A model generated the notes under the pieces. That model ran no database searches. It had not been told where the DNA came from and was given only the letters and a program-made list of their open reading frames with translations. The translations under genes and the position numbers were made by a program. A stretch of DNA of 64,000 nucleotides from an uncultured Gemmatimonadota bacterium (lineage in GTDB: Bacteria; JAAXHH01), in assembly GCA_951812955.1 (NCBI GenBank), contig OX638340.1:3040001-3104000 (forward strand). Reading direction: 5' to 3'. Positions 31,109 to 51,470 of this stretch are shown here, one piece after another (the stretch's first letter is position 1; each line of letters starts with the position of its first letter).

Positions 31109-31181
31109 AGCCCTCGGCCGGACTTGAACCGGCGACCTACACCTTACCATGGTGTTGCTCTACCAACTGAGCTACAAGGGC
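31109..31181 (-). tRNA. tRNA-Thr (anticodon GGT)
   Basis: Manual cloverleaf: GCCCTTG acceptor, GCTC/GAGC D-stem, ACACC-ATGGTAA-GGTGT anticodon arm (GGT), GCCGG-TTCAAGT-CCGGC T-arm; CCA not encoded. Confidence 0.85.
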
Positions 31182-31266
31182 GCTTTCGTTCAAGGTTCAG
31201 ATTAATGCTTACATTATAGCTGGCCGAAACCTTCAGTTTTCCGAACCCGGTCACAGCACTTTATAG

Positions 31267-31340
31267 AGCGGGAAACGGGACTCGAACCCGCGACCCTCAG
31301 CTTGGAAGGCTGATGCTCTAGCCAACTGAGCTATTCCCGC
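31267..31340 (-). tRNA. tRNA-Gly (anticodon TCC)
   Basis: Manual cloverleaf: GCGGGAA acceptor, anticodon loop CTTCCAA, GCGGG-TTCGAGT-CCCGT T-arm. Confidence 0.85.
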
Positions 31341-31403
31341 CGGTTGTCATTCTGAAGCTGCCTGTTGGCCTGATCTACCCGCCGGCCCTCTTTCAGATAC
31401 GCA

Positions 31404-31485
31404 TGGGGAGGGCAGGATTCGAACCTGCGAAGGCTGAGCCAACGGATTTACAGTCCGTCCCATTTGACCGCTCTGGAACCTCCCC
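31404..31485 (-). tRNA. tRNA-Tyr (anticodon GTA), class II with long variable arm
   Basis: GGGGAGG acceptor, anticodon loop with GTA, long variable arm, AGGTTCGAATCCT T-arm; 82 nt. Confidence 0.85.
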
Positions 31486-31497
31486 TGGCTACCTGAA

Positions 31498-31570
31498 AGC
31501 CACCACTCGGATTCGAACCGAGAACCTACTGATTACAAATCAGCCGCTCTGCCATTGGAGCTATGGTGGC
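31498..31570 (-). tRNA. tRNA-Thr (anticodon TGT)
   Basis: GCCACCA acceptor, GCTGA-TTTGTAA-TCAGT anticodon arm, CTCGG-TTCGAAT-CCGAG T-arm. Confidence 0.85.
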
Positions 31571-31688: not shown

Positions 31689-33461
31689 TCACCGTCGCAG
31701 GCGGATATGGAGATCCCGGAGCTGTTTCTCGCTGACCGCTCCCGGCGCGCCCATGAGCAGATCCTGGGCGTTCTGGTTCAGGGGAAAGGCGATGACTTCC
31801 CGGAGATTGGTCTCGTCGGTGAGGAGCATGACGATCCGGTCGACACCCGGAGCGATGCCGCCGTGGGGCGGCGCGCCGTACTTCAACGCACTGATCATGC
31901 CGCCGAATTCCTCGTCCACCTCGTCGGCGGAATAACCGGCGATTTCGAAGGCCCGGTACATGATGTCGGGCCGGTGGTTCCGGATGGCGCCGCTGGACAG
32001 TTCCGTACCGTTGCATACGATGTCGTACTGGTAGGCCAGGACCTCGAGAGGCGGCTTGTTCCCGAGGGCTTCCAGTCCGCCCTGGGGCATGGAGAACGGA
32101 TTGTGCGAAAAGATGACCTTCCCGGTTTCCGCGTCGTATTCGTACATGGGGAAATCGACGATCCAGCAGAAACGGTAGGCGTTCGGCTCACGCAGGGAAA
32201 GCAGATCCGCGAAATGCAGCCTGAGCTTGCCCGCCACGTCGTTCGCGCGGTCCTCCGCGTCGGCCGTGAAAAACCATGAGGAACCGGTTTCGGGTTCGAT
32301 GACGGATTTCAGCCGATCGAGGGTCTGCTCGTCCAGCACGCGGGCGATGGAACCCTTGACCCCATCCTCGGTAAAGGAAATGTAGGCCGCGCCCCGTCCC
32401 CCGAAACCCTCCTTCACGGTCCGGTCCAGGTTGTCGAAGAAACTGCGGGGCTTCACGGCGACGCCAGGGACGGCAAGGGCCCTCACCACGCCGCCTTTCT
32501 CGACGATCTGGCGAAACGCATTGAAATCGGAGTCCCGGAAGGCCTCGGTAACGTCCTGGATCTCCAGGCCGAAGCGCAGGTCGGGCTTGTCGGAACCGTA
32601 ACGGAGCATCGCTTCGCGATAGGGGATGCGCGGAAAGGGCGGTGCAGTCACCTTCCAGTCGCTGAACTCCGTGAACAGCCCGTGAAACAGGGTCTCCAGC
32701 GCTTCGAAAACATCATCCTGCTCCACGAAGGACATCTCCACGTCCAGCTGGTAAAACTCGCCCGGCGACCGATCGGCCCGGGCATCTTCATCCCGGAAGC
32801 ACGGGGCGATCTGGAAATAGCGGTCGAACCCCGAGATCATGAGAAGCTGCTTGAACTGCTGCGGCGCCTGGGGAAGGGCGTAGAATTTGCCCGGATGCAC
32901 CCGGCTCGGGACCAGGTAGTCCCGGGCGCCCTCGGGCGAACTGCTGGTGAGGATGGGCGTGTTGAACTCGTTGAAGCCAAGGGCCGTCATGCGTTGCCGT
33001 ATGCTCGCAACGATGCGCGACCGCATGATGATGTTGTGGTGTATCCGCTCCCTGCGCAGATCGAGCATGCGGTAGGTCAGGCGGGTGGCTTCCGGGTATT
33101 CCCGCTCGTCCGCGACGGACAGGGGCAGCGGATCCGCGGCGCTGAGTACCGTCATGGAATCGGCCTTCACTTCGATATGGCCCGTGGGCAGGTTGGGGTT
33201 GACCGCGTCCTCCGCCCTCGGGATTACCCCGCCGGTGAAGGTGGCGACGGTCTCCGCACGCAGGTCCCCAGCCTCTTCGTGGAATCCGCTTTCAGGCGTT
33301 ATGACGACCTGCGTGATCCCGTAGTGGTCCCGCAGGTCGATGAAGAGCAGGCCGCCGTGGTCCCGTTTCCGGTGAACCCAGCCGGCGATTCGCACGCACG
33401 TACCCTCGTCGCTCCGCCTCAATTCTCCGCAGGTGTGTGTCCTGTATGGGTGGTCTTTCAT
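31689..33461 (-). CDS. aspS: aspartyl-tRNA synthetase
   Basis: 590 aa; class II aaRS motifs and N-terminal OB anticodon-binding domain ([22 protein letters not shown]). Confidence 0.95.
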
Positions 33462-35180: not shown

Positions 35181-35876
35181 TTATCCGCCGCAGCAGGTCT
35201 GCATCACTTTTTCCACCCGATCGCGCACTTCCGCCTGCACTTCTTCGGGCGCGCGCGCGCCATCAATAATCTCAATCTGATCCAATGTTTTTCTGCGGTG
35301 CGCCAGTTCCAGGTAATTTCCGCGGATGGCGCGAAGCGTTTCCAGGTTCTCGAACAACTCGGTATCCGCACGCGCCTGGCGTATCCGTTCCATGCAAACC
35401 TCGGCGGGCGCATCGATGAGCAGGGTCAGATGGGGGTGGATCGCCCGTGCGTTGATCGACTCGATCCAGTCCAGCTCGCCGGGCATCTCCCGCCACTGGT
35501 AGGCAAAGGACGAGAGGAAATAACGGTCGCACAACACGGGGATTCCGCGGTGAATGCTGGATTCGATTTCCGATTTGACGTGATCGATCCGGTCGGCGGC
35601 GAACAGCAGGGCGTGACAGATGCCGTCGAGTTCCACCCGGCGCTGAAGGGCATCTTTCAGCAGTCTGCCGATGGGGCGGTTCGTGGGTTCTCCCGTGGTA
35701 AGGACGGGCCTCCCGTAACGCACTTCCATCCACTCGTGAAGGCGTTTCAGCTGAGTCGTCTTGCCCGCGCCGTCTATCCCTTCGATTACGATGAATGGCG
35801 CGGCGGCGTCGCCGGAATCGCGGCAGACCTCCTTTCCCTTCATGAATTCCCCCATGGACGGAGCAGGTCCCGCCAT
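35181..35876 (-). CDS. tmk: thymidylate kinase
   Basis: FIVIEGIDGAGKTTQ P-loop and DRY motif; the start could be Met8 or Met12, which would reduce the 37-nt overlap with the upstream gene. Confidence 0.9.
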   Translation of the reverse strand: MAGPAPSMGEFMKGKEVCRDSGDAAAPFIVIEGIDGAGKTTQLKRLHEWMEVRYGRPVLTTGEPTNRPIGRLLKDALQRRVELDGICHALLFAADRIDHVKSEIESSIHRGIPVLCDRYFLSSFAYQWREMPGELDWIESINARAIHPHLTLLIDAPAEVCMERIRQARADTELFENLETLRAIRGNYLELAHRRKTLDQIEIIDGARAPEEVQAEVRDRVEKVMQTCCGG

Positions 35877-36520
35877 CCACGCGCTTCTTCCAGGACGCTG
35901 GTTTCGCTAAGCTCATATCGTTTCAGGGTTTCACGCAGTCCGGTGCTGAACAGCACGCCGATGGCACCGATGCCCAGGAAGAGCAGCCCGATACCGCTGG
36001 CCAGGCTGAAGACCATGATGAGAGAACCGGCCAGCAACAGCACGAAGGCGTAGCCGGCGTTGTCCAGGGCGAGGAATACACCGGAACGGATGATCTGCCT
36101 GACCGGGGCCCGGTTCCGGTACGCAAGCGGCAATGTGAAGACGGCCGTCATGCAGACGAAGACGATCAGCCACATCATCACGCCGCCCAGGACCGCGCCG
36201 GTCCAGGGCCAGTCATCCATGAGACGCATGTAGAAAAACACGTTGGCGGCAAGGAGAGCCAGGACGCCCGCGTAAAGCCCGCAGAGCACGAAACTGCGGC
36301 CCAGATCCTGCCTGGCGTGAACGAAGAAATCCCTCAAGCCCGTCTCTTCGTAGGCGGCGATTCGTCCGGTGACCCGGAACAGTCCGGCAAAGGCGAGGGG
36401 AAGCGTAACCAGCGGCAGGGCGCACAATATCCACAGGATGTTGATCACGATCAGCGTTCCCAGGTAATCATAGGTATTCCAGAACCATTTCCTGAACAGC
36501 CCGGGATCCTTGTCCTGCAT
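35840..36520 (-). CDS. polytopic membrane protein, DUF624/YesL-like
   Basis: 226 aa, about 6 predicted TM helices; N-terminal FRKWFWNTYDYLGTLIVINILWILCALPLVTLP pattern. Confidence 0.45.
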   Translation of the reverse strand: MQDKDPGLFRKWFWNTYDYLGTLIVINILWILCALPLVTLPLAFAGLFRVTGRIAAYEETGLRDFFVHARQDLGRSFVLCGLYAGVLALLAANVFFYMRLMDDWPWTGAVLGGVMMWLIVFVCMTAVFTLPLAYRNRAPVRQIIRSGVFLALDNAGYAFVLLLAGSLIMVFSLASGIGLLFLGIGAIGVLFSTGLRETLKRYELSETSVLEEARGWRDLLRPWGNS

Positions 36521-36547
36521 ACTCGGCGCACCCTTTTACGGGGCTTT

Positions 36548-36640
36548 CGGCCGGCGGCCGCGGTTCGCAAAGCCCGAATTCAAAGGCCGGCCCGGCCGGG
36601 TGCTGCGGTTCGCGAAGCCTGTTTCCAAAGGCCGGCTCGG
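36548..36640. repeat. two about 32-bp direct repeats (period 45 bp), each centred on the palindrome TTCGCGAA / TTCGCAAA
   Basis: gcggttcgcaaagcccgaattcaaaggccgg (36560-36590) vs gcggttcgcgaagcctgtttccaaaggccgg (36605-36636); in the divergent intergenic region. Confidence 0.5.
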
Positions 36641-36711
36641 TCTGCTCGACAACGCCAGCATGGTACAGGCTCCACCCTGAATTCGCAACTGTTTTCTTGG
36701 CGAGAAAAACC

Positions 36712-36740
36712 TTGACATAACCGTCGGACCGCAATATAAT
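36712..36740 (+). promoter_or_regulatory. perfect-consensus sigma70-type promoter: TTGACA (36712-36717), 17-nt spacer, TATAAT (36735-36740)
   Basis: Read directly: cTTGACAtaaccgtcggaccgcaaTATAATggcg. It is 57 nt upstream of the leader ORF and 326 nt upstream of trpE. Confidence 0.65.
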
Positions 36741-36796
36741 GGCGCAATTCTAACAGTGGGCAGTCGAACGTGTTCCTCATCAAACTCTGGAAAGAA

Positions 36797-36916
36797 ATGA
36801 CAGCCGTTTACTCCTCCCGGTCATCGCGATTCGATTATTGGCGGAAGCAGAGCGATCTGTTTACCTGGTGGCCTTTTTACGGGACGAGGCGGCATGTCAT
36901 GCGAAGCGGCGCCTGA
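36797..36916 (+). CDS. 39-codon leader peptide rich in aromatic codons (3 Trp incl. tandem TGG TGG, 3 Phe, 3 Tyr): MTAVYSSRSSRFDYWRKQSDLFTWWPFYGTRRHVMRSGA
   Basis: Manual translation. GGAAAG lies 4 nt upstream of the ATG. It is located between the consensus promoter and an intrinsic terminator upstream of trpE. Confidence 0.55.
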   Translation: MTAVYSSRSSRFDYWRKQSDLFTWWPFYGTRRHVMRSGA

Positions 36917-36948
36917 TTGAAGTAGATTCATCCTTCGTTGATTTGACC

Positions 36949-36982
36949 GGCCTCTACCCACACAAGGTAGCGGCCTTTTTTT
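36949..36982 (+). terminator. intrinsic terminator (attenuator) in the trp/aro leader
   Basis: GGCCTCTACC-cacacaa-GGTAGCGGCC (9/10 bp stem) followed by TTTTTTTGTTTTG, 84 nt before the trpE ATG. Confidence 0.6.
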
Positions 36983-37065
36983 GTTTTGTGCGGGCATGAT
37001 CGCGACAGGCCGCTCCAGGTAGAGGGAATCCCAGGCAACTTGTCACCACGTAAAGGTCTGTAACC

Positions 37066-38553
37066 ATGTACAGGACATCCTACGACACCTTTCTGGAGTA
37101 CAACGGCAAGCCCGATTTCCCCCTGGTGCCCATCTGGCACGAACGGGACCTGACAGATGAAACGCCCGAGGAAACCTTCCACCGGATCAGCGCGGGATAC
37201 CGGTACGCCTTCCTGTTGGAGAGTATGGAAGGCGATCAGAAAACGGCGCGGTATTCCTTCGTAGGCGCAGATCCCTTTGAGCGTATCGTCGGAACGAAAC
37301 AGGGGATCAACAGGATCAACGACCGGGGGGTGCTGACGCTGAAGGGCAACCCCATCGAGCTGATGCGGGAAATCATGAGGGAATACCGGACCCCGGTGCT
37401 CGAACACCTGCCCCGGTTCACGGGCGGCGCCGTGGGATACCTCGGTTACGACGTCGTTCGGCACTTCGAAGAAATTCCGGACGACAACCCGGACGACCTG
37501 ATGATGCCCGACCTGCACTTCATCGTGGCAGGGAAGATTGTGGTTTTCGACCACGCGCGCAAGCGCATGTACGTGATCGTCAATATGCTGTCCAATGCCA
37601 CGGATCCCGCATCGGCCTACCGGCAGGGCATGACCCAGGTAGACGACATGCTGAAACGGATCGACCGGCCACAGCCTCCAGTCGAGTCCTTCGATGAAGG
37701 CCCGACCATGGAGGCGGATCGGACCGTGTCCTCCAACATGACCCGGGACGAGTTCGAGGATACGGTGAGGACGGCCAAGGAATACATCGCCGCGGGGGAC
37801 ATCTACCAGGTGGTGCTGTCCCAGCGGTTCAGGATGGAAGCCGGCCGGGATCCCTTCGATGTGTACCGGGCGCTCGCGAGGCTGAATCCATCGCCCTACC
37901 TGTTTTACCTGCGGCTGGACGACGTGCATATTGTCGGCTCCTCGCCCGAGACGATGGTACTGGCCGAGAACCGCAGGGTGACGGTACGCCCTCTGGCCGG
38001 GACTTGCCGGCGGGGCGCGGACGAGGCGGAAGACCGGCTGTTGATCGAAGAGATGCTGAATGATCCCAAGGAACGGGCGGAACATGTGATGCTGGTGGAC
38101 CTGGGCCGAAACGATATCGGCCGCATCTGCGAATACGGTACGGTTCGAACGTCGGAACTGATGGGCATAGAGCGGTATTCCCACGTGAGCCATATCGTAT
38201 CGAACGTGGAGGGACGCCTCCGGGAAGGCATCGATGGATTCGACGTGCTGGAGGCGACATTCCCGGCGGGGACCCTGTCCGGCGCACCCAAAATCCGGGC
38301 CATGGAAATCATCGACGAACAGGAGACCACCCGGCGCGGCGTGTACGGCGGGGCATTGGGGTATTTCGGTTTTTCGGACAACCTCGACCTGTGCATCACC
38401 ATTCGGACCATGGTTATCAAGGACGGCCAGGCCTACATCCAGGCGGGCGCCGGCATCGTCGCGGACTCGGATCCCGGAAAAGAATACGAGGAATGCTGGA
38501 AGAAGGCCGAGGCGCTGCTGCGGGCGCTGAAGGAAGCCGAGGTGGTTTCATGA
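37066..38553 (+). CDS. trpE: anthranilate synthase component I
   Basis: 495 aa chorismate-binding enzyme; [31 protein letters not shown]. Confidence 0.95.
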
Positions 38554-41193: not shown

Positions 41194-41805
41194 ATGAACA
41201 CGGTCAAGATCAAGATTTGCGGCATCACGAATGAAGCGGACGCCTCCGCGGCGGTCCACGCGGGCGCGGACGCGCTGGGTTTCATTTTTTACGGTGGCAG
41301 CCCCCGGTACGTCGAGCCGGAGCAGGTCGCGGACATCGTGGGCGGCCTGCCGCCTTTCGTCGTGCCGGTAGGCGTTTTCGTGAACGCGTCGGTGGACGAA
41401 GTCGACGAAGTCTGCGAGAACACGGGGATCCAGGTCGCACAGCTCCATGGCGATGAATCGCCGGATTTTTGCACCAACGTGGGCCGGCCCGTCGTCAAGG
41501 CCCTTCGCGTCAGGGACGCGTCCTGGAAATCCGATGCCGCGGCCTATGCCGTCGGCGCGGTGCTGCTCGATACGTACGCCGAAGACCGGTATGGCGGTAC
41601 AGGGGTTGTGTTCGACTGGCGGCTCGTGGAAGGCAGCCCCCACCGCGTCATTCTGAGCGGCGGGCTGAACCCGATGAACGTGGCCGAGGCCGTGCGGAGC
41701 GTGCGTCCCTACGGTGTGGACACGGGGAGCGGTGTGGAGCGGGAGCCGGGCCGCAAGGATCACGGAAAGATCCGGGCCTTCGTGGAGGCCGCGAGGGGGG
41801 CGTAA
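41194..41805 (+). CDS. trpF: phosphoribosylanthranilate isomerase
   Basis: 203 aa; MNTVKIKICGITNEADASAAVHAGADALGFIF. Confidence 0.9.
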   Translation: MNTVKIKICGITNEADASAAVHAGADALGFIFYGGSPRYVEPEQVADIVGGLPPFVVPVGVFVNASVDEVDEVCENTGIQVAQLHGDESPDFCTNVGRPVVKALRVRDASWKSDAAAYAVGAVLLDTYAEDRYGGTGVVFDWRLVEGSPHRVILSGGLNPMNVAEAVRSVRPYGVDTGSGVEREPGRKDHGKIRAFVEAARGA

Positions 41806-42698
41806 TGAACACGCTGGACGAGGACGGGTCCCGGGGACTTTCTATTTCCGGTTCGACCCGCGTGGTCGGCGTATGCGGCCGGGGCATCGGTTACACCCTT
41901 TCGCCGGCCATGCACAACGCCGCCTTTCGGCATTGCGGACTGGACTACGTGTATGTAACCTTCGAAATCGCGGCGGCCGCCGTTCGACAGGCGGTAGACG
42001 GGATCCGGGGACTCGGGCTGGCGGGCGTAAACGTGACCAAGCCGCTCAAGACGGACGTACTGCCCTACCTGGACGAGGTGTCCGACGAGGCCCGAAGGAT
42101 CGGGTCGGTCAATACCATCGTCAACCGCTCGGGCCGGCTCGCCGGCGCTTCGACGGACGGCGCCGGACTACTGCGGGCACTCAGCGGAAAGGGTGTCACC
42201 GTCGAGGATTCGAGGGTGGTTATCCTGGGTGCCGGCGGTGCGGCCCGGGCGGCCTGCCATATGGCCAGGAGCGCGGGGGCGGGCTCGATTGCCATAGCCG
42301 CACGCGACGCGGCGCGCGCCGAAGACACCGCGGCGGTGGGAGGCGCATCGGCGGTTTCCCTGGCGCCGCGGGAACTGGGCGCCGCGATCGGGAGCGCCGA
42401 TCTGGTCATCAACGCGATCCCCGCGGACCTGCCCCTGGATGAAGACTGGTTCAATGCGGGACAATTTGTCTACGAAACGCGTTACGACCAGGAGGAGACA
42501 GGACTTATGCGTAACGCCCGGTCCCGGGGCGCGGGCGCGTTGAACGGCATCGATATGCTGCTGTTTCAAGGTGCTGAGTCGTTTGAGATCTGGACCGGAC
42601 GGCAGGCTCCGGTCGAAGTGATGAGAAGCGCCCTGGAAGATCAGTTGCGGCGCCGGGTAGACCAGGATGGGGCTGGTCATCCGGGACGTCCGACATAG
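41805..42698 (+). CDS. aroE: shikimate dehydrogenase
   Basis: Start at internal Met113 of ORF 41469..42698 (MNTLDEDGSRG...). TAATG overlap with the trpF stop. VGVCGRGIGYTLSPAMHNAAF and LGAGGAARAA Rossmann motifs. Confidence 0.85.
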   Translation: MNTLDEDGSRGLSISGSTRVVGVCGRGIGYTLSPAMHNAAFRHCGLDYVYVTFEIAAAAVRQAVDGIRGLGLAGVNVTKPLKTDVLPYLDEVSDEARRIGSVNTIVNRSGRLAGASTDGAGLLRALSGKGVTVEDSRVVILGAGGAARAACHMARSAGAGSIAIAARDAARAEDTAAVGGASAVSLAPRELGAAIGSADLVINAIPADLPLDEDWFNAGQFVYETRYDQEETGLMRNARSRGAGALNGIDMLLFQGAESFEIWTGRQAPVEVMRSALEDQLRRRVDQDGAGHPGRPT

Positions 42699-42801
42699 TG
42701 ATGGCGCTGAGGCCGGCGGCGCGGTTACATCGTCCGGCGGCGTACATATGCTTGACGGTCCGGGGCAGACCGGGCCGGGACCCTAGAAATCTGGAGACCG
42801 C

Positions 42802-43959
42802 ATGTTACGATACCTGACCGCAGGAGAATCTCACGGACCGGCGATATCGGCGATCCTCGAAGGGCTGCCCGCGGGGGTACCGGTCGCGGCGGAAGAGGTC
42901 AACCGCGACCTGAAACGGCGCCAGGGAGGATACGGACGAGGCCGGAGAATGCAGATCGAGACCGATACGATCGAAATCCGGGGCGGCGTCCGCCATGGAA
43001 AGACTATGGGCGGCCCGGTTTCCCTTGTGGTCCAGAACCAGGACTGGAAGAACTGGACGGACGTGATGTCGATCGAGGAGGCCGACGGTCCGGTGAGGCG
43101 CCGGGTGACGCGGCCCCGGCCGGGGCATGCCGACCTGGCGGGTGGCCTGAAGTACGACCGCCGCGACCTCCGGGACATCCTCGAGCGGGCCAGCGCCCGG
43201 GAAACGACCATGCGGGTTGCCGTCGGCGCAATCGCCCGCTCCCTGCTGGCGGAGTTCGGCATCCATGTACTCAGTCACGTCGTGCGGATCGGGCAGGTGG
43301 ACGCGGACGTGAGCGGACTGTCGAACGAACAGATCCTGGAACGGGCCGAGGCGTCGCCCGTGCGCTGCGCCGACGCGGACGCCGCGCAGAAGATGATCGG
43401 AGAAATCGACCGGGCAAAGTCCCTCAAGGACACGATCGGCGGAGTCTTCGAGGTCAAGGTGCTGAACGCGCCCCCCGGACTGGGCAGTCATGTGCAGTGG
43501 GACCGCAAGCTCGACGGACGACTCGCCCAGGCGGTCATGAGCATCCAGGCCGTGAAGGGGGTCGAGATCGGACTGGGCTTTGGCGTGTCCCGGGTGCTGG
43601 GTTCCGAGGTCCACGACGAGATCCACTATGGCGACGGCCGTTTTTACCGGGAAACGAACCGGGCCGGCGGCATCGAGGGCGGCATGACCGAAGGCGAGGA
43701 AATCGTGGTGCGCGGCGCCCTTAAGCCCATCGCGACCCTGATGCGCACCATCATGTCGGTGGATATCGAGACCAAGGAAGCCTTCGATTCCGCCAAGGAG
43801 CGTTCGGACGTCTGCACCGTACCCGCCGCCGGCGTGATCGGCGAAGCGGTGGTGGCCTTCGTCGTCGCCGACGCCATGCAGGAGAAATTCGGCGGCGACA
43901 GCCTGGAGGAGATGAAGCGGAACTACCAGGGCTACAAGGACCAGTTGGCCCGTTACTAG
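42802..43959 (+). CDS. aroC: chorismate synthase
   Basis: 385 aa; MLRYLTAGESHGPAISAILEGLPAG. Confidence 0.95.
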   Translation: MLRYLTAGESHGPAISAILEGLPAGVPVAAEEVNRDLKRRQGGYGRGRRMQIETDTIEIRGGVRHGKTMGGPVSLVVQNQDWKNWTDVMSIEEADGPVRRRVTRPRPGHADLAGGLKYDRRDLRDILERASARETTMRVAVGAIARSLLAEFGIHVLSHVVRIGQVDADVSGLSNEQILERAEASPVRCADADAAQKMIGEIDRAKSLKDTIGGVFEVKVLNAPPGLGSHVQWDRKLDGRLAQAVMSIQAVKGVEIGLGFGVSRVLGSEVHDEIHYGDGRFYRETNRAGGIEGGMTEGEEIVVRGALKPIATLMRTIMSVDIETKEAFDSAKERSDVCTVPAAGVIGEAVVAFVVADAMQEKFGGDSLEEMKRNYQGYKDQLARY

Positions 43960-43963
43960 CGGA

Positions 43964-45643
43964 TTGTCCGGAGCATTTACCGGCAGCGCGCGGCCTCGGA
44001 TATCACCGGTCGAGGCGATCACGACAGGCAGGCGGCACGTGGCGAAAACTGGACAGGAGAAAGCCGGCGGCATCGTCCTGATCGGTTTCATGGGCACCGG
44101 AAAGACGGCGGTGGGGCGGCGGCTCGCAGGCGCCCTCGGCCTGCCCTTCGTGGACACCGACACGCTGATAGAGGAGCAGGCCGCGACCAGTATTCCGGAT
44201 CTCTTCAGGACGCGGGGCGAGACGGGTTTCCGGGCAATCGAGAAGCAGGTCATTCGCAGCCTTGCCGACGGGGAGCGCCGGGTGATCGCCACCGGAGGCG
44301 GCGCCGTGCTCGATCCGGACAACTTCGACGTGCTCAGGTCCCTCGGTCCGGTTATTCACCTGAGCGCGCCGGCGCCGACTATCCTGGCGCGAACGAAAGG
44401 CGACGCCGGCGTGCGGCCCCTGCTGGCCGGGGACGACCCGCTGGAGCGGATCCGGTCGCTTCAACGGGTGCGTGCGCCGGTCTACGGCCGAGCGGACCAC
44501 GAAGTCGACACGTCACGGCATACCATAGACGAGACCGTGGAGATGGTCATGGCATGGACCGGAAACGGCGAGCGCGTGATCCGGGTAGAACTCGGGGACG
44601 ACAGCTACGATATCGTGATCGGATCCGGCTGTCTCGGACGCCTGGGCTCCTTGATGAGTTCCTTCGACCTGACCGATCGCGCACTGGTCGTAACCCACCC
44701 GGATATCGCCACGCTCTACGGGGAACGGGCTGCGGACTCCCTGCGTTCGGCCGGCTTCGAACCGGCCGTGATCGAGGTGCCGGCCGGAGAAGAACAGAAA
44801 TCGCTGCAATGGGCCGAGAAGCTATACGACGCGATGCTGTCCCATCGCATGGACCGCCGTTCCCCCGTCATCGCGCTGGGCGGCGGGGTGGCCGGGGACC
44901 TGGCCGGCTTCGCCGCGGCCACCTTCCTGCGCGGCATTCCATTCATACAGGCTCCTACTTCTCTCCTCGCCCAGGTGGACGCCAGCGTGGGGGGCAAGGT
45001 CGCCGTGGACCACCGTCGTGGGAAGAACCTGATCGGCGCCTTCTACCAGCCTCTGCTCGTACTGGCCAGCCTGGACACGCTAGACAGTCTGCCCGATCGG
45101 GAACTGCGCGCGGGCATGGCGGAAGTGATCAAGTATGGGGTCATTGCAGACGCCGGCCTTTTCACCTATATTGAGGGTCGCCTTGACGAGATACTCAGGC
45201 GCGAATACGGTGCGCTCGCCCATCTGGTGGCCCGGTCCTGCGAGATCAAGGCCGATGTCGTTGCCGGGGACGAGCGTGAGCAGGGTCGGCGGGCCATACT
45301 CAACTTCGGCCACACCATGGGGCATGCCATCGAGACGCAGACCGGCATGCTGCACGGAGAGGCCGTGGCGATCGGCATGGTCTACGCGGCCCGTGTCGCG
45401 AAACGCCTGGGCATGCTGGACGGCGACAGCGTGCAAAGGCTGATCGAGTTGGTGCGTCGAACGGGGTTGCCGGTGCGCTGCGACGGCCTTGACGCTTCGG
45501 CGACCCTCGAAACCATGAAGTTGGACAAGAAATCGGTCGGTGGCCGCATGCGTTTCATCCTGCCGGAGCGAATTGGCGCGGTGGTCATCCGGGACGACGT
45601 CCCCAATGATTATATCCGGTCGGTCTTGACCGCGGGAACCTGA
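43964..45643 (+). CDS. aroKB: bifunctional shikimate kinase / 3-dehydroquinate synthase (AroK-AroB fusion)
   Basis: 559 aa. N-terminal P-loop [19 protein letters not shown] (shikimate kinase); C-terminal DHQ-synthase motifs ([53 protein letters not shown]). Confidence 0.9.
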
Positions 45644-45676
45644 GTAGCGGCGCTACCAGGCAAAACGGAACGAAAC

Positions 45677-46123
45677 ATGAAATTACTCGTGTTGCACGGT
45701 CCGAATCTGAATATGCTGGGTGTCCGGGAACCGGAGGTCTACGGCAGAGATACGCTGGAAGACATCAACCGGTCCCTCGAGTCGGCCGCGGCGGACCAGG
45801 GAGTCGAGTTGCGCATTCGCCAGTCCAATCACGAAGGGGTGCTAGTGGACGAGATTCAGGAGGCCCTCGGGCGGGCGGAAGGCATCCTGATCAATCCCGG
45901 CGCGTACACGCATACGAGCATCGCCCTGCGCGACGCGATCGTCGCCGTGGGCCTGCCCGTCGTGGAGGTGCACCTGTCCGACATTCACGCCCGGGAGCAT
46001 TTCCGGCGCCATTCCTATATCGAGCCTGTGGCGCTCACGCAGATCTGCGGACATGGAAGCAGAAGTTACCTGCTGGGCCTGGAGGCCCTGGTCGATCATA
46101 TCAGGACGGGGAGCGAGGGATGA
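45677..46123 (+). CDS. aroQ: 3-dehydroquinate dehydratase, type II
   Basis: 148 aa; [23 protein letters not shown]. Confidence 0.9.
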
Positions 46124-47340
46124 CTGCCACCGCACTGCCTGACAAAAGAGGACACTTCGGGGTCTTCGGCGGCCGTTACGTCCCGGAAACGCTGATGACG
46201 GCCCTGGACGAACTCCTCGAGGTATATGAAGCGGCGACGCGGGATCCCGTCTTCGAGGATGAATTCCGCTACTTCCTGGCGGACTACGTGGGCCGGCCTT
46301 CCCCCCTTTACTTCGCGGAACGACTGACGGAGACCCTCGGCGGCGCCCGGATCTACCTCAAGCGGGAAGACCTGAACCACACGGGCGCCCACAAGATCAA
46401 TAACACCATCGGCCAGATCCTGCTGACCCGGCGCATGAATAAACCCCGGGTCATCGCCGAGACCGGAGCCGGCCAGCACGGCGTGGCCACGGCGACCGTG
46501 GCCGCCCGTTTCGGCCTGGAGTGCGACGTCTACATGGGGACCGAGGACATGGAACGCCAGGCGCTTAACGTCTTCCGCATGCGCCTGATGGGGAGCCGGG
46601 TCATCGGCGTCGACGCGGGCAGCCGCACGCTGAAGGACGCGCTGAACGAAGCCCTGCGCGACTGGGCGACCAACGTGCGGCATACCCATTACATCATCGG
46701 ATCGGTGGCGGGGCCCCATCCCTTCCCCTTGATGGTACGGGAATTCCAGTCGGTCATCGGCCGCGAAGCGCGCGGGCAGATCCTGGAGAAGGAAGGGCGG
46801 CTGCCGGATATGCTTGTCGCCTGCGTGGGGGGAGGCAGCAACGCCATCGGCCTCTTTCATCCTTTTCTAGACGACGAAGTGCAACTGGTCGGCGTGGAAG
46901 GGGCGGGGCACGGGCTCGACACCGGCCTGCACGCCGCGACGCTGGGCCAGGGCACGCCGGGCGTACTGCACGGCGCCATGAGCTATACGGGACAGGACGC
47001 AAATGGCCAGATCCAGGTCGCCCATTCCATCTCCGCCGGGCTGGACTATCCCGGTGTGGGACCCGAGCACAGCTACCTGAAGGACTCCGGCCGCGCGGAT
47101 TACGTCAGTGTGACCGATGACGAGGCGCTGGAGGCCTTCGAGCTGCTGTCCAGGGTCGAAGGCATCATACCCGCCCTGGAAAGCGCCCACGCCATCGGCC
47201 ATATCGCCCGGATCGCCCCGGGAATGGACCGGGATCAGATCATTGTCGCCGGGCTGTCGGGCCGCGGGGACAAGGATGTCGAGCAGGTATACGGATTCAT
47301 GGACCAGGAGCGGGTGGACCAGGAGCGGATGGAGGGCTGA
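46120..47340 (+). CDS. trpB: tryptophan synthase beta chain
   Basis: 406 aa; [18 protein letters not shown]-lysine motif. Confidence 0.95.
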
Positions 47341-48162
47341 ATGAACCGCATTGAAGAGACCTTCGCGACGCTTAAGTCTGCGGAACGGAAAGCGCTCGTC
47401 CCGTACATCATGGCGGGAGATCCGGACCTGGAAACGACCGCCGACCTGGTCGTGGAACTGGATCGCCGCGGCGCCGACCTGGTCGAACTGGGCGTTCCCT
47501 TCTCCGATCCCATCGCGGACGGCCCGACGATACAGCGCGCCGCGCTGCGGGCCCTGGATCAGGGCACGACCCTCCGGAACATCGTCGGTACGGTCGGATC
47601 CATCCGGGAGCGGTCGGACATACCAATCGTCCTGATGACCTATTACAACCCGGTACTCGCCTACGGTATCGAGGATCTTTGCCGAGATGCCGTCCGCACA
47701 GGTGTGGACGGTCTGATCGTACCCGACCTCCCGCCGGAAGAGGGCGGCGACCTGTCCGATGCCTGCCGGCGACATGGACTCACCGTCGTGTTCCTGGTGG
47801 CGCCCACGAGCACAAAGGCCCGGATCGAACTGGTGGGCCGCCACACCACGGGATTCGTATACTGCGTCTCCCTGACCGGCGTCACGGGCGCCCGGGGAAA
47901 GCTGGCGGACGGGGTGGACGAGTTTATGGCGCTGGTGCGGTCCCACACGGACCGGCCCCTTGGCCTGGGATTCGGCATTTCGTCGCCGGAACAGGCCAAT
48001 GAGGCCGCCCGGCTGGCCGACGGGGTCATCGTGGGCAGTGCCATAATCAACGTAATGGAAGAACACGCCGGCGAGCCGGATTTGATCCGGACCGTGGGCG
48101 AATACGTGGCTTCACTGAGAGCGGGCATAGACAGGAAGAACCCGGTGACCGCGCCGGGGTGA
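47341..48162 (+). CDS. trpA: tryptophan synthase alpha chain
   Basis: 273 aa; starts 1 nt after the trpB stop. Confidence 0.95.
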   Translation: MNRIEETFATLKSAERKALVPYIMAGDPDLETTADLVVELDRRGADLVELGVPFSDPIADGPTIQRAALRALDQGTTLRNIVGTVGSIRERSDIPIVLMTYYNPVLAYGIEDLCRDAVRTGVDGLIVPDLPPEEGGDLSDACRRHGLTVVFLVAPTSTKARIELVGRHTTGFVYCVSLTGVTGARGKLADGVDEFMALVRSHTDRPLGLGFGISSPEQANEAARLADGVIVGSAIINVMEEHAGEPDLIRTVGEYVASLRAGIDRKNPVTAPG

Positions 48163-48234: not shown

Positions 48235-48342
48235 ATGACAGCAGTTTCATCCAGCCAGGGAGATGCATGTGGGAGTCGAGGAGCCCGGTCGGGTCTCTGC
48301 GGCTCCCACGTATTCCAACCAACTTTTCAGGTATGTTTCTGA
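48235..48342 (+). CDS. candidate 35-codon small ORF MTAVSSSQGDACGSRGARSGLCGSHVFQPTFQVCF; its first 15 nt are nearly identical to the start of the trp leader ORF
   Basis: Manual translation. The 213-nt trpA-aroH spacer also holds a TGaTAGAAT extended -10-like element overlapping the ORF stop and a strong AGGAGG before aroH. Coding status unproven. Confidence 0.2.
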   Translation: MTAVSSSQGDACGSRGARSGLCGSHVFQPTFQVCF

Positions 48343-48375
48343 TAGAATCCAGCATTCCGCATTCCAGGAGGAACC

Positions 48376-48741
48376 ATGGTCCGGGGCGTTCGAGGCGCCA
48401 TAACCGTTGAACTGAACACCGCCGATGCCATTGGAGAAGCGTCCCGGCGACTGCTGTCGGCGATCGTCGACGCCAATCGCATCGAATTGGAGCAGATCGC
48501 CAGCGTCATCTTTTCCGCGACGAAGGATCTCGACGCCGAGACGCCCGCATTGGGAGCGCGCCAGATGGGATGGACGTCGATCCCCCTGTTCTGCACCCAG
48601 GAGATGGAAGTCCCAGACGGACTTGCCCGGTGCATCCGGGTTCTGATTCACGTAAACACGGTAAAACCACAGGATGAAATACGGCATGTTTACCTGAACG
48701 GAGCCGTAGTACTCAGGCCGGACATCGCCGAAGGAGGTTGA
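48376..48741 (+). CDS. aroH: monofunctional chorismate mutase, AroH class
   Basis: 121 aa; [13 protein letters not shown]-terminus, characteristic of B. subtilis-type AroH. Confidence 0.8.
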
Positions 48742-48742
48742 A

Positions 48743-49759
48743 ATGGTGGTCGTAATGAAGCCGCAGGCTTCGGAAGACCAGAAGGAGCATGTAAGGGATA
48801 CCATCCGTGCTTTCGGCTGCAAACCGCGTGACATTCAGGGTGACGCAATTACAATTATCTGTCTTATCGGCAATACACTGAGCCTTTCGCCCGAACAGTT
48901 TGAAATCCTTGACGGGGTGGACCGGGTTCAGCGCATTCAGCGGCCATACAAGCTCGTAAGCCGGGAAGTGCAGCCGCACAAGACCCAATTTCAGGTAGGC
49001 AACGTCACGATCGGCGGCGATGGGATTACCATCATAGCCGGTCCCTGTTCGGTCGAATCCTATGACCAGTTCGTGGAAGCGGCGCGGCACGCCCGGGCGG
49101 CCGGGGCCCACATCATCCGCGGCGGCGCGTTCAAGCCGCGGACTTCCCCCTACAGTTTCCAGGGGCTCGGCGAGGAAGGCCTGAAGATCATGGCCCGGGT
49201 CAGCGAGGAAACGGGACTGCCGACCATCTCGGAGGTGATGGAGCCGGAAATGGAACCGATGGTCTCCGAGTACGTGGACATGCTGCAGGTCGGCGCGCGC
49301 AATATGCAGAACTACCCGCTGTTGAACGCCGTGGGACAGAGTTCCAGGCCCGTCATGCTCAAGCGCGGCATGTCCGCCACGATCGAGGAGATGCTGCTGG
49401 CGGCAGAATACATCCTTGCGGGGGGAAACCACAACGTCGTTCTGTGCGAGCGGGGTATACGGACCTTCGAGACCTGGACGCGGAATACACTCGACATCTC
49501 GGCCGTGCCGGTGTTACAGAAATACACCCATCTGCCGGTCTTCATCGATCCGAGCCACGGAACCGGCAACGCGGATTTCGTGGGTCCGGCGTCCCGGGCG
49601 GCCGTTGCGGTCGGCGCGGACGGACTCATGATCGAGATGCATCCCAGACCCGAGCGCGCACTTTCGGACGGGGACCAGTCTCTGACTCCGGAAGCGTTTG
49701 CCTCGCTGATTCCGGAATTGCAGGCGGTCGCGACAGCCGTGAACCGCACCATAGACTGA
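48743..49759 (+). CDS. aroG: 3-deoxy-7-phosphoheptulonate (DAHP) synthase, type I-beta with N-terminal regulatory (ACT/FL-like) domain
   Basis: 338 aa; catalytic core GPCSVES...[13 protein letters not shown]...IDPSH preceded by an about 90-aa N-terminal domain. Confidence 0.9.
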
Positions 49760-49767
49760 GTTCGTTT

Positions 49768-50631
49768 ATGCGAGTCACCATCATCGGAGTCGGATTGCTG
49801 GGCGGTTCCTTCGGCATGGCGCTCCGCAAGTCGGGGGCGGCGGATCATGTCGCGGGCGTCGACCTGGACCGGGCAACGCTCGACCGGGCCATCGATCGCG
49901 GCGCGGTCGACGAGGGATTCCTCGACCTGGCCGAGGGGGTGGAAAGGGCCGACCTGGTCGTGCTCGCCACGCCGGTCCGGGCCATACTCGAGATGCTGCC
50001 GGGCCTGGCGTCGATTCTCGGTGCGGAGACCGTCCTCCTGGACCTGGGCAGCACCAAGGAGGCCATCGTTTCCACCGTCGCCAGTCAGGCCGGAATCAAA
50101 CGGTATGTCGGCGGACACCCCATGGCGGGAACCGAGCACGCCGGCATCGAACACGCCGATGCCCGGTTGCTGCAAGACGCGACTTTCGCCCTGGTCCCGC
50201 CTCCCGAGGTCGATGAAGGGGCTGTCGATCTGCTCACGGATCTCGTCCGCGGGATCGGCGCCTGTCCCGTCGTCATTCCCGCGGAACGCCACGACCGGAT
50301 CGTTTCCATAACCAGCCACCTCCCCTACCTGCTGTCCGTAGTGTTGGCGCTCGCCGCGGAAAACATGGCGCGCGAGGAAGACCGCCTGGGAGCGTTTGCG
50401 GCATCGGGATTTCGGGACACCACCCGTCTGGCCGCGTCCAACGTGCGCGTGATGGCCGACATTTGTCTGACGAACGGCCGGCCACTGCTCCGCGGCATCG
50501 AGGACGCCAGGCGGTTGCTGGACGACCTGGCGGCGCTGATCGAGGAGGGACGCGAGTCGGAACTGGTGAGGACGCTGACGACAGCGAAGGAAAGCAGGGC
50601 CTCGTTGTTGGAGGAGAGGAGAACCGATTGA
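49768..50631 (+). CDS. tyrA: prephenate/arogenate dehydrogenase
   Basis: MRVTIIGVGLLGGSFGMALRKSG Rossmann start at internal Met109 of ORF 49444..50631; 288 aa. Confidence 0.85.
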   Translation: MRVTIIGVGLLGGSFGMALRKSGAADHVAGVDLDRATLDRAIDRGAVDEGFLDLAEGVERADLVVLATPVRAILEMLPGLASILGAETVLLDLGSTKEAIVSTVASQAGIKRYVGGHPMAGTEHAGIEHADARLLQDATFALVPPPEVDEGAVDLLTDLVRGIGACPVVIPAERHDRIVSITSHLPYLLSVVLALAAENMAREEDRLGAFAASGFRDTTRLAASNVRVMADICLTNGRPLLRGIEDARRLLDDLAALIEEGRESELVRTLTTAKESRASLLEERRTD

Positions 50632-51470
50632 ACAAGTACAGGACCGGCTTCCAGGGCGAACTGGGCGCTTTCAGCGAAATGGCCGTGCAGGCATATTTCG
50701 GGGACGCGGCCGAACCGGTGCCACACGGGTGGTTCGACGACGTGTTCCGCGCCGTGGACGAAGGGCGGTGCGACTACGGGATGCTTCCGATCGAAAACAC
50801 CCTCGCGGGCAGCATCCACGTCAATTACGACCTGATGCAGGAGCACGACCAGCAAATCGTCGGCGAGATCGTGCTCCGGATCGTCCACAACCTGATGGCG
50901 AAACCGGGTGTCCGCCCGGAGGAACTCCGCCGGGTCCAGTCTCATCCCAAGGCGCTGGAACAGTGCGTCCGGTTTTTCCGGGAACATCCGTCGCTGAAGC
51001 CCGAAACTGTTTACGACACGGGCGGCGCGGCCAAGATGCTAGGTGAGGGAGAAGACCGGGACATCGGCGTGATCGCGAGTACCCGCGCCGCGGAGCGGTA
51101 CGGACTCGAGATCCTGGAGCACGGCATCGAAGACAACGTCCAGAACTATACGCGTTTCCTGGTCCTGGGCAGGGAGCCCGAACCACCTGTGGGCGAACGC
51201 CTTAAGACCTCCATCGTGTTCTCGATGCCCCACGAACCCGGCACGTTGTTCAAGGCCATGAGCGTATTCGCGCTGCGGGACATCTCCATCAACAAGATCG
51301 AATCGCGGCCCCTGGTCGGATCCCCCTGGGAGTACCTGTTCTACCTGGATTTCGAGGGACACGCCGACAGTCTGCTCTGCAAACGTGCGCTCAACCACCT
51401 CCAGGAGATCGCGACCAACTTCAAGCTGCTGGGATCCTACGCCGAGGGCAGCATCGTGGACCGGGTCTGA
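50628..51470 (+). CDS. pheA: prephenate dehydratase with C-terminal ACT domain
   Basis: PDT core (YRTGFQGELGAFSEMAVQAYFG) plus ACT (SIVFSMPHEPGTLFKAMSVFA). There is no in-frame ATG near the N-terminus; a TTG at 50628 overlaps the tyrA stop (TTGA) with GGAGGAGAGGAG upstream. Confidence 0.8.
   Translation: MNKYRTGFQGELGAFSEMAVQAYFGDAAEPVPHGWFDDVFRAVDEGRCDYGMLPIENTLAGSIHVNYDLMQEHDQQIVGEIVLRIVHNLMAKPGVRPEELRRVQSHPKALEQCVRFFREHPSLKPETVYDTGGAAKMLGEGEDRDIGVIASTRAAERYGLEILEHGIEDNVQNYTRFLVLGREPEPPVGERLKTSIVFSMPHEPGTLFKAMSVFALRDISINKIESRPLVGSPWEYLFYLDFEGHADSLLCKRALNHLQEIATNFKLLGSYAEGSIVDRV

Follow-up and report, generated by a model that had tools for sequence, protein, structure and literature searches.

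The stretch analyzed here, 64,000 nucleotides of contig OX638340.1 from an uncultured Gemmatimonadota bacterium (assembly GCA_951812955.1, positions 3,040,001 to 3,104,000 of the forward strand; hereafter the window), carries an operon that begins with trpE and joins the tryptophan genes to those of the common shikimate pathway. The question raised by this locus is how such an operon is controlled, and what part is played by the short open reading frame (ORF), crowded with aromatic codons, that lies between its promoter and trpE. An earlier inspection of the letters, the sequence-only reading, had proposed an unusual attenuator that senses Trp, Phe and Tyr together. From a comparison of related loci we conclude that the leader is probably a ribosome-mediated (leader-peptide) transcription attenuator of the aromatic amino-acid biosynthesis operon, a reading based on the parts, their conservation, the codon bias and the predicted alternative pairings shown below. 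The elements on which the argument turns are the following, positions being those of the window.

36712-36740, plus strand: sigma-70-type promoter TTGACA-17-TATAAT (TTGACA 36712-36717, TATAAT 36735-36740)
36789-36791, plus strand: Shine-Dalgarno-like GGA, weak, 5 nt upstream of the leader start codon
36797-36916, plus strand: leader ORF of 39 codons plus TGA (ATG 36797, TGA 36914-36916)
36860-36880, plus strand: core codon cluster F-T-W-W-P-F-Y (TTT ACC TGG TGG CCT TTT TAC)
36949-36988, plus strand: intrinsic terminator (stem-loop 36949-36975, -15.3 kcal/mol; U-run 36976-36988)
37066-38553, plus strand: trpE, the first structural gene of the controlled operon

The leader reading frame and its aromatic codons

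Relatives of the locus were collected in two steps. A TrpE scan of species-representative genomes gave 10 close relatives with 87-98% identity, all of them uncultured metagenome-assembled genomes (MAGs) labeled as bacterium, Gemmatimonadetes or Candidatus Latescibacterota, and a protein search reaching down to 59% TrpE identity (labels Latescibacteria and Zixibacteria) was followed by the addition of 10 further loci, within L081-L092. The leader was recovered in all 20 related loci (TrpE 59-98% identical), with the same synteny in each; together with the window these make up 21 loci, which were grouped as 11 lineages for the codon and fold counts. The family is a narrow one: a metagenome scan with a pattern built from region 2 (defined below) and the terminator core returned four contigs, all from lineages already included here, and 70 more distant trpE loci (L011-L080) had no aromatic-rich, Trp-containing leader ORF upstream.

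The promoter is the perfect TTGACA-17-TATAAT that the sequence-only reading had pointed out. It is the single match in the 64-kb window, none was found in 100 dinucleotide-preserving shuffles, and a TTGAC..TATAAT/TATATT promoter is kept in 21/21 loci; transcription would start near 36747, about 7 nt past the TATAAT. The GGA upstream of the leader ATG is invariant among the 11 close relatives, and a stronger Shine-Dalgarno sequence, AGGTG, stands at the same position in L083, L085 and L086. An alternative GTG start at 36770 was rejected, being not conserved and separated from the frame by an intervening stop in L002 and others.

The product of the leader ORF is MTAVYSSRSSRFDYWRKQSDLFTWWPFYGTRRHVMRSGA, and the expectation that the ORF is conserved in relatives was borne out, since it is open in 20/20 of them. 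Its frame contains no in-frame stops, compared with 0-4 in the other frames. The 11 closest sequences differ at 32 sites of the ORF, distributed 12/9/11 over the three codon positions, with no indels and no stops; the N-terminal half diverges and the 3′ half, from F-T-W-W-P-F-Y-G to the stop, is near-invariant in nucleotides. In the diverged lineages the frame remains open over 32-48 codons, and an ATG start is kept everywhere except in L091. The position of the stop codon shifts by up to about 40 nt between lineages: the TGA overlaps the motif GAGGC in L087 and L092, a TAA directly follows GAGGC in L089, and in the others the stop lies 22-39 nt beyond it. In L089 the near-invariant GAGGCGG is read in a different frame, indicating that it is conserved as RNA and not as Arg-Arg, and its overlap with the stop in L087 and L092 accords with the blocking of region 2 by a terminating ribosome.

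The codon content of the ORF was as the sequence-only reading had given it, with 9 aromatic codons of 39 and a tandem TGG TGG (36866-36871). These are three each of Phe, Tyr and Trp (Y5, F12, Y14, W15, F22, W24, W25, F27 and Y28), compared with 3.7 ± 1.4 in dinucleotide shuffles (P = 0.0005) and with two in each of the other frames. Over the 11 lineages, 114 of 417 codons (27%) encode F, Y or W, as against 5.5% in the operon proteins; dinucleotide shuffles of the same ORFs gave a sum of 54 ± 5 with a maximum of 71 in 2000, and the ORF frame holds more aromatic codons than both other frames in every lineage. The excess extends into the variable N-terminal part, which cannot be aligned between clades and in which F is enriched 5.0-fold, Y 3.8-fold and W 19-fold (for example RFDYW in the window, YFPFSFMGSW in L083 and VFFSYSFRPFW in L088). 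The core is conserved as [Y/F]-x-F-x-W-[W/R/Y/F]-(P)-F-Y-G, with the variants LFTWWPFYG, LFTWRPFYG, FPFTPWYFYG and FPFSRWFFYG, and it mixes W with F and Y in every lineage; its residues keep their identities despite synonymous third-position changes (TTT/TTC, TAC/TAT, CCT/CCC).

Alternative RNA folds and the proposed mechanism

The RNA downstream of the leader ATG is predicted to adopt competing structures, formed by the following segments.

36797-36825, plus strand: region 1, the 5′ strand of hairpin A (anti-antiterminator), AUGACAGCCGU...CUC.CUCCCGGUCAUC, which pairs with 36867-36900 in the minimum free energy (MFE) and RNAalifold structures
36881-36899, plus strand: region 2, the purine-rich 5′ strand of the antiterminator, GGGACGAGGCGGCAUGUCA, which is also the 3′ strand of hairpin A
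36901-36938, plus strand: hairpin B, which spans the leader stop TGA 36914-36916 and stacks under the antiterminator (RNAalifold)
36939-36959, plus strand: region 3, the 3′ strand of the antiterminator, UGAUUUGACCGGCCUCUACCC, which includes the terminator 5′ arm 36949-36958

The GC stem and U-run that had been noticed before trpE form the stem GGCC.CUACC / GGUAG.GGCC followed by TTTTTTTGTTTTG at 36976-36988, and the U-run lies 77-90 nt before the trpE ATG, depending on the end from which it is counted. This terminator is present in all loci and almost invariant in sequence, with 100% of cells paired in 16 sequences and a compensatory A:U at its base in L087. When the RNA 5′ of about 36880 was removed or masked, 36881-36899 paired with 36939-36959 and the terminator was abolished. 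The antiterminator helix stacks on hairpin B and takes up G36950-C36954 and C36957-C36959 of the terminator 5′ arm. Provided that either the 3′ arm or the RNA upstream was left out of the fold, it was the MFE structure in 17/17 sequences folded one by one, with all 11 lineages represented. The region 2 duplex is worth -18.3 kcal/mol and the whole antiterminator hairpin -29.1 kcal/mol, and the terminator's own arm -17.2 kcal/mol.

These pairings are also conserved. In a MAFFT alignment 83% of the antiterminator cells are paired, a share that falls to 36-54% if the 3′ partner is displaced by 1-3 columns, and eight antiterminator pairs have changed on both sides, a count reached in 3/500 shuffles. 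The lower antiterminator helices differ between lineages (GUCA:UGAU in the window, GGACA:UGUCC in L087 and L088, GGGAAGUCA:UGACGUUCC in L090). In hairpin B the apical stem shows a compensatory series from U:A through U:G (L081) to C:G (L005, L007 and L010), as well as U:G to U:A, and the GCGAAG:CUUCGU stem covaries. Both the folding and the covariation checks that were run thus agree with the mutually exclusive antiterminator and terminator that the sequence-only reading had envisaged. The particular pairing that it had named survives in part: the complementarity of the Trp-codon segment (cctGGTGGCC) to the terminator arm (GGCCtctACC) is real, with 7 pairs and a mismatch, but as the antiterminator it was rejected, because CCUGGUGGCC against GGCCUCUACC reaches -10.7 kcal/mol compared with -18.3 kcal/mol for 36881-36899 and would lie under the stalled ribosome.

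In the free MFE structure of the whole leader, hairpin A, with a small hairpin inside it, is followed by hairpin B and the terminator. The duplex of regions 1 and 2 in the window clade has an energy of -28.1 kcal/mol, as against -16.9 ± 2.8 kcal/mol for shuffles; in the other lineages the role of region 1 falls to a pyrimidine-rich part of the early ORF with many F/Y codons (UAUUUUCCGUUUUCUUUU in L083, for example).

The spacing of codons, pairing regions and stop was obtained from the coordinates. In every lineage the core Trp codon precedes GAGGC by 17-26 nt, and the leader stop falls at -1 to +39 nt relative to this motif. The last aromatic codon precedes the motif by 6-17 nt, and the core aromatic cluster ends 6-20 nt ahead of it. 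The E. coli trp attenuator is laid out in the same way. A ribosome whose A site is occupied by UGG would have its leading edge (about +12 to +15, counted from the P site) at 36878-36884 and would leave region 2 just uncovered. One that has reached the stop codon with its A site would cover approximately 36896-36928 and thereby the antiterminator's lower 5′ strand; the part covered in L087, L089 and L092 would be region 2 itself.

We infer from this arrangement that the leader ORF is translated, that ribosomes stall in it, and that one or more of the three amino acids modulate read-through. The 39-codon leader would be translated as it is transcribed. When charged Trp, Phe and Tyr tRNAs are ample, the ribosome would reach the TGA at 36914 and sit on the lower 5′ strand of the antiterminator; after its release, or in a leader that escapes translation, region 1 (36797-36825) would pair again with region 2 (36867-36900). 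Both routes would let the terminator (36949-36988) form and end transcription before trpE. When aromatic aminoacyl-tRNA is scarce, the ribosome would stall at the aromatic codons, chiefly at the F-T-W-W-P-F-Y cluster, where it would hold region 1 off region 2 with its leading edge just short of GGGACGAGGCGGCAUGUCA; the free GGGACGAGGCGGCAUGUCA could then pair with UGAUUUGACCGGCCUCUACCC and capture the terminator 5′ arm, allowing read-through into trpE. At the level of sequence, the leader displays the features of a classical attenuator that were examined, apart from the anti-antiterminator, which is supported only in part.

A number of observations weigh against this reading. The folding energy of the whole leader is no better than that of shuffles (z = -0.84), and the pairing of region 1 with region 2 clearly beats shuffles in 4/11 lineages (the window clade, L081, L086 and L089), is borderline in one and does not do so in six. 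In the window, region 1 lies behind and not under a ribosome stalled at the Trp codons, so that the exclusion of the 1:2 pairing is a steric argument; in several lineages region 1 is itself rich in F/Y codons (L083 among them), and a ribosome stalled there would mask it directly. Masking the ribosome footprint in folds of the whole leader keeps the terminator in the MFE structure, because the program re-pairs region 1 with region 2 across the masked ribosome; the antiterminator emerges only with the upstream RNA left out. On the side of translation, the Shine-Dalgarno sequence of the window leader is weak (GGA), and the leader of L091 has TTG as its only start, with no Shine-Dalgarno sequence. 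Base composition accounts for about half of the aromatic excess (about 13% in shuffles), the L086 leader contains a single Trp codon, and the sequences are related to one another, hence the lineage counts are not independent.

Two further structural features lie beside these segments.

36843-36865, plus strand: small hairpin GGAAGCAGA-GCGA-UCUGUUUACC (predicted fold), just 5′ of the Trp codons
37008-37025, plus strand: GGCCGC (37008-37013) and GGTAGAGG (37018-37025), complementary to the terminator 3′ and 5′ arms respectively

A hairpin occurs at the site of the first in the MFE structure of each lineage, with differing loop sequences and a shifting register, and may be a pause hairpin. As for the second, RNAalifold pairs GGCCGC and GGTAGAGG with the terminator arms in the read-through RNA of the window clade only, where they may affect trpE translation or the re-folding of that RNA; L083-L092 have neither sequence, and their terminator lies 3-60 nt from trpE (3-25 nt in L088, L089 and L091).

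Signals that the leader could sense

The proposal that W, F and Y codons act together finds comparative support, in that each of the three is enriched and the core cluster is always mixed. The content of the operon, trp genes with common shikimate genes kept together in the most distant member, matches the codon content of the leader, and this was counted in favor of an attenuator. In its full form, the Phe/Tyr codons of the early ORF (region 1) and the W/F/Y cluster at the edge of region 2 would each promote read-through, so that starvation for any aromatic amino acid induces the operon. We consider such a three-input sensor a real possibility, with somewhat less than an even chance of being true.

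A rival account is that the Trp codons near region 2 are the sole functional sensors and that Phe and Tyr codons are by-products of the U/pyrimidine-rich sequence needed for the pairing of region 2 and for the U-rich spacer. Trp is by far the most enriched residue (19-fold), dinucleotide composition alone generates roughly 13% aromatic codons, and in several lineages region 1 is the UUU/UUC/CCC-rich strand that pairs with GGGAAGAGGCGG. What tells against a sensor of Trp alone is that aromatic codons in the ORF frame outnumber those in the other frames and in shuffles in every lineage, and that Tyr codons remain 3.8-fold enriched in the part that is not conserved. Moreover, L086 has one Trp codon but four F and four Y, an aromatic residue (W, Y or F) follows the core Trp in 6/11 lineages, the identities of F and Y survive synonymous changes, and the operon includes the common-pathway genes that all three amino acids require. 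The C. glutamicum aroR leader provides a precedent in favor of the Trp-only account, for it has a Tyr codon and yet, according to the summary in PMC11802643, the supply of Tyr is without effect. Taking these points together, we regard a Trp-only attenuator as unlikely.

The conservation of the core invites a different explanation, in which the peptide L-F-x-W-[W/R]-P-F-Y-G itself arrests the ribosome or acts as a sensor in the manner of TnaC or SecM, the pausing depending on the nascent chain, possibly with a free aromatic amino acid, and not on tRNA charging alone. The core is indeed kept as amino acids with synonymous variation, including a Pro and a Gly that codon hunger does not need, and W, P and G are typical of arrest motifs. 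The same nucleotides are, however, under constraint from RNA pairing, since GG in the Gly codon is the pairing partner of CC in the terminator arm and CUGUUUACC is part of the small hairpin; in L090-L092 the core is rearranged and lacks the Pro; and a biosynthetic operon needs induction by starvation, which codon hunger supplies directly. We give this explanation very little weight.

The remaining class is that of RNA switches that bind a protein or ligand. A search of 36000-37600 against Rfam 15 (4227 families, E <= 10) left the leader unmatched and gave three chance-level matches elsewhere in that interval, and at gathering thresholds the whole window contained only four tRNAs; the leader is therefore not a T-box (RF00230), a member of the enterobacterial Trp (RF00513) or Phe leader family, or a known riboswitch. 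A TRAP-type leader was rejected by direct reading of 36747-36990, which contains only isolated GAG/UAG triplets and no (G/U)AG array. A riboswitch-, T-box- or TRAP-like switch with an incidental ORF would account for the approximately 140 nt (36856-36988) that are almost invariant where TrpE differs by up to 13%, which exceeds what the helices need, but it is highly improbable, given that no Rfam family matches and with it no T-box, that the run of about 9-11 (G/U)AG repeats needed by TRAP is missing, that the ORF stays open with its ATG and Shine-Dalgarno sequence while its first half diverges and its stop moves, and that the codon bias is specific to the frame.

The operon, its surroundings and known attenuators

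Downstream of the probable leader-peptide attenuator, Pfam assignments give the order trpE, trpG, trpD, trpC, trpF, aroE, aroC, a fused aroK-aroB, aroQ, trpB and trpA, ending at 48162; after a 213-nt gap come a chorismate mutase (aroH type), DAHP synthase, tyrA and pheA (48376-51470). This agrees with the shikimate and Phe/Tyr branch genes that the sequence-only reading had assigned to the operon, the gap leaving the aroH-DAHP synthase-tyrA-pheA group as what may be part of the trpE transcript, and so a candidate only. A simple scan inside the operon found no strong promoter or terminator. A divergent gene for a DUF624-like membrane protein together with tmk upstream, and trpEGDCF downstream, are common to all loci. 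In L097, the most distant relative, the genes run trpEGDCF-aroE-aroC-aroKB-aroQ-trpB-trpA in unchanged order and nearly abut. The gene that follows trpA there (20709-21518 of L097) is Saccharop_dh_N/ArgZ-like and not the chorismate mutase-DAHP synthase-tyrA-pheA group, indicating that the Phe/Tyr branch genes are not always attached to the operon.

Several features of the surrounding DNA were observed in addition. Shikimate kinase and 3-dehydroquinate synthase are fused in one ORF of 559 aa (43964-45643), and trpB/trpA are parted from trpEGDCF by aroE-aroC-aroKB-aroQ (41469-48162). The gap between trpA and aroH contains a 35-codon ORF (48236-48343, MTAVSSSQGDACGSRG...) that starts ATGACAGCAGTTTCATCCAGCC, which matches the opening of the leader ORF, ATGACAGCCGTTTACTCCTCCC, at 17/22 nt. 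Downstream of this ORF come a GC hairpin that lacks a U-run and, ahead of aroH, a strong AGGAGG; the ORF could be either a remnant or another leader-like element. Upstream of the trp promoter, at a distance of about 15-170 nt, GCAACTGTTTTCTT (36685-36698) is kept in 21/21 loci. Its minus strand reads AAGAAAACAG-TTGCGA-17 nt-TACCAT/TATACT, which looks like an UP element with the -35 and -10 sequences of the divergent DUF624-like membrane-protein gene (35840-36520, minus strand). The 5′ untranslated region of that gene contains a tandem repeat of about 50 nt (GGCCTTTGGAAACAGGCTTCGCGAACCGCAGC / GGCCTTTGAATTCGGGCTTTGCGAACCGCGGC, approximately 36525-36640), of which L003 and L004 apparently have an extra copy. 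Four tRNA genes are clustered at 31109-31570 (minus strand), adjoining aspS (31689-33461, minus strand).

Leader-peptide attenuation is textbook knowledge, and its examples come nearly all from Proteobacteria and Actinobacteria. To our knowledge, the known aromatic leaders sense one amino acid (trpL and pheL) or contain Phe/Tyr codons only (aroR), and regulation has never been studied in the host lineage, which is uncultured and partly sponge-associated. The Latescibacterota are placed in the FCB group. If the three-input reading is true, the leader would be the first case of multivalent attenuation by Trp, Phe and Tyr, would represent the first attenuator reported from the Latescibacterota/Zixibacteria section of that group, and would show that attenuator logic can bring together all three aromatic amino acids in the control of one operon uniting trp and shikimate genes. 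A limited literature search found no W+F+Y leader before a trp and shikimate operon and no attenuators in Latescibacterota or Zixibacteria. Lying outside Rfam and extending over 11 diverged lineages, with distinct alternative folds and a well-delimited codon cluster, the leader family is usable as an annotation marker for these MAGs. The mechanism is most likely a familiar one, in an unusual form that involves three amino acids.

Among the known systems compared, the E. coli trpL leader (RF00513) likewise has a short ORF after the promoter, a terminator before trpE, Trp codons about 15-20 nt before the segment that can pair with upstream RNA or with the terminator 5′ arm, and a stop at a position where the antiterminator is disturbed by a terminating ribosome. 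Unlike trpL, the leader described here matches RF00513 in neither sequence nor structure, has 39 codons instead of 14, and contains as many Phe and as many Tyr codons as Trp codons; its antiterminator is a long hairpin stacked on an extra stem-loop that spans the stop, the beginning of the ORF, with the AUG, serves as its region 1, and its operon also contains shikimate-pathway genes. The B. subtilis aro supraoperon and trp leader resemble it in having trp genes within a larger aromatic operon and alternative terminator and antiterminator structures. TRAP in that species senses free Trp and binds 11 (G/U)AG repeats, whereas the present leader has no such repeats and instead a conserved, putatively translated ORF. 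Multivalent attenuation has been demonstrated experimentally for E. coli ilvL (Leu/Val/Ile) and thrL (Thr/Ile), in which, as here, one leader peptide mixes codons for several amino acids that depend on the operon; those leaders concern other amino acids and have no sequence relation to this one, in which multivalent control is proposed by inference only.

E. coli pheL/pheA (PMC3082878) also has runs of Phe codons in a short leader before an aromatic branch gene, followed by a terminator, but pheL is short, has only Phe codons and a single-gene target, and the present leader has no Rfam match. In Actinobacteria, a survey from 2005 turned up no RNA elements for the genes of Phe or Tyr (PMC1262725). 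In C. glutamicum, the aroR leader (Phe-Tyr-Phe) upstream of aroF responds to Phe and not to Tyr, and a separate trpL serves the trp genes (Neshat et al. 2014, as summarised in PMC11802643). For mixed aromatic codons aroR is the nearest precedent, being a leader-peptide attenuator before common aromatic-pathway genes; it has no Trp codons and belongs to a different phylum, whereas here a single leader with W, F and Y codons precedes both the trp and the shikimate genes.

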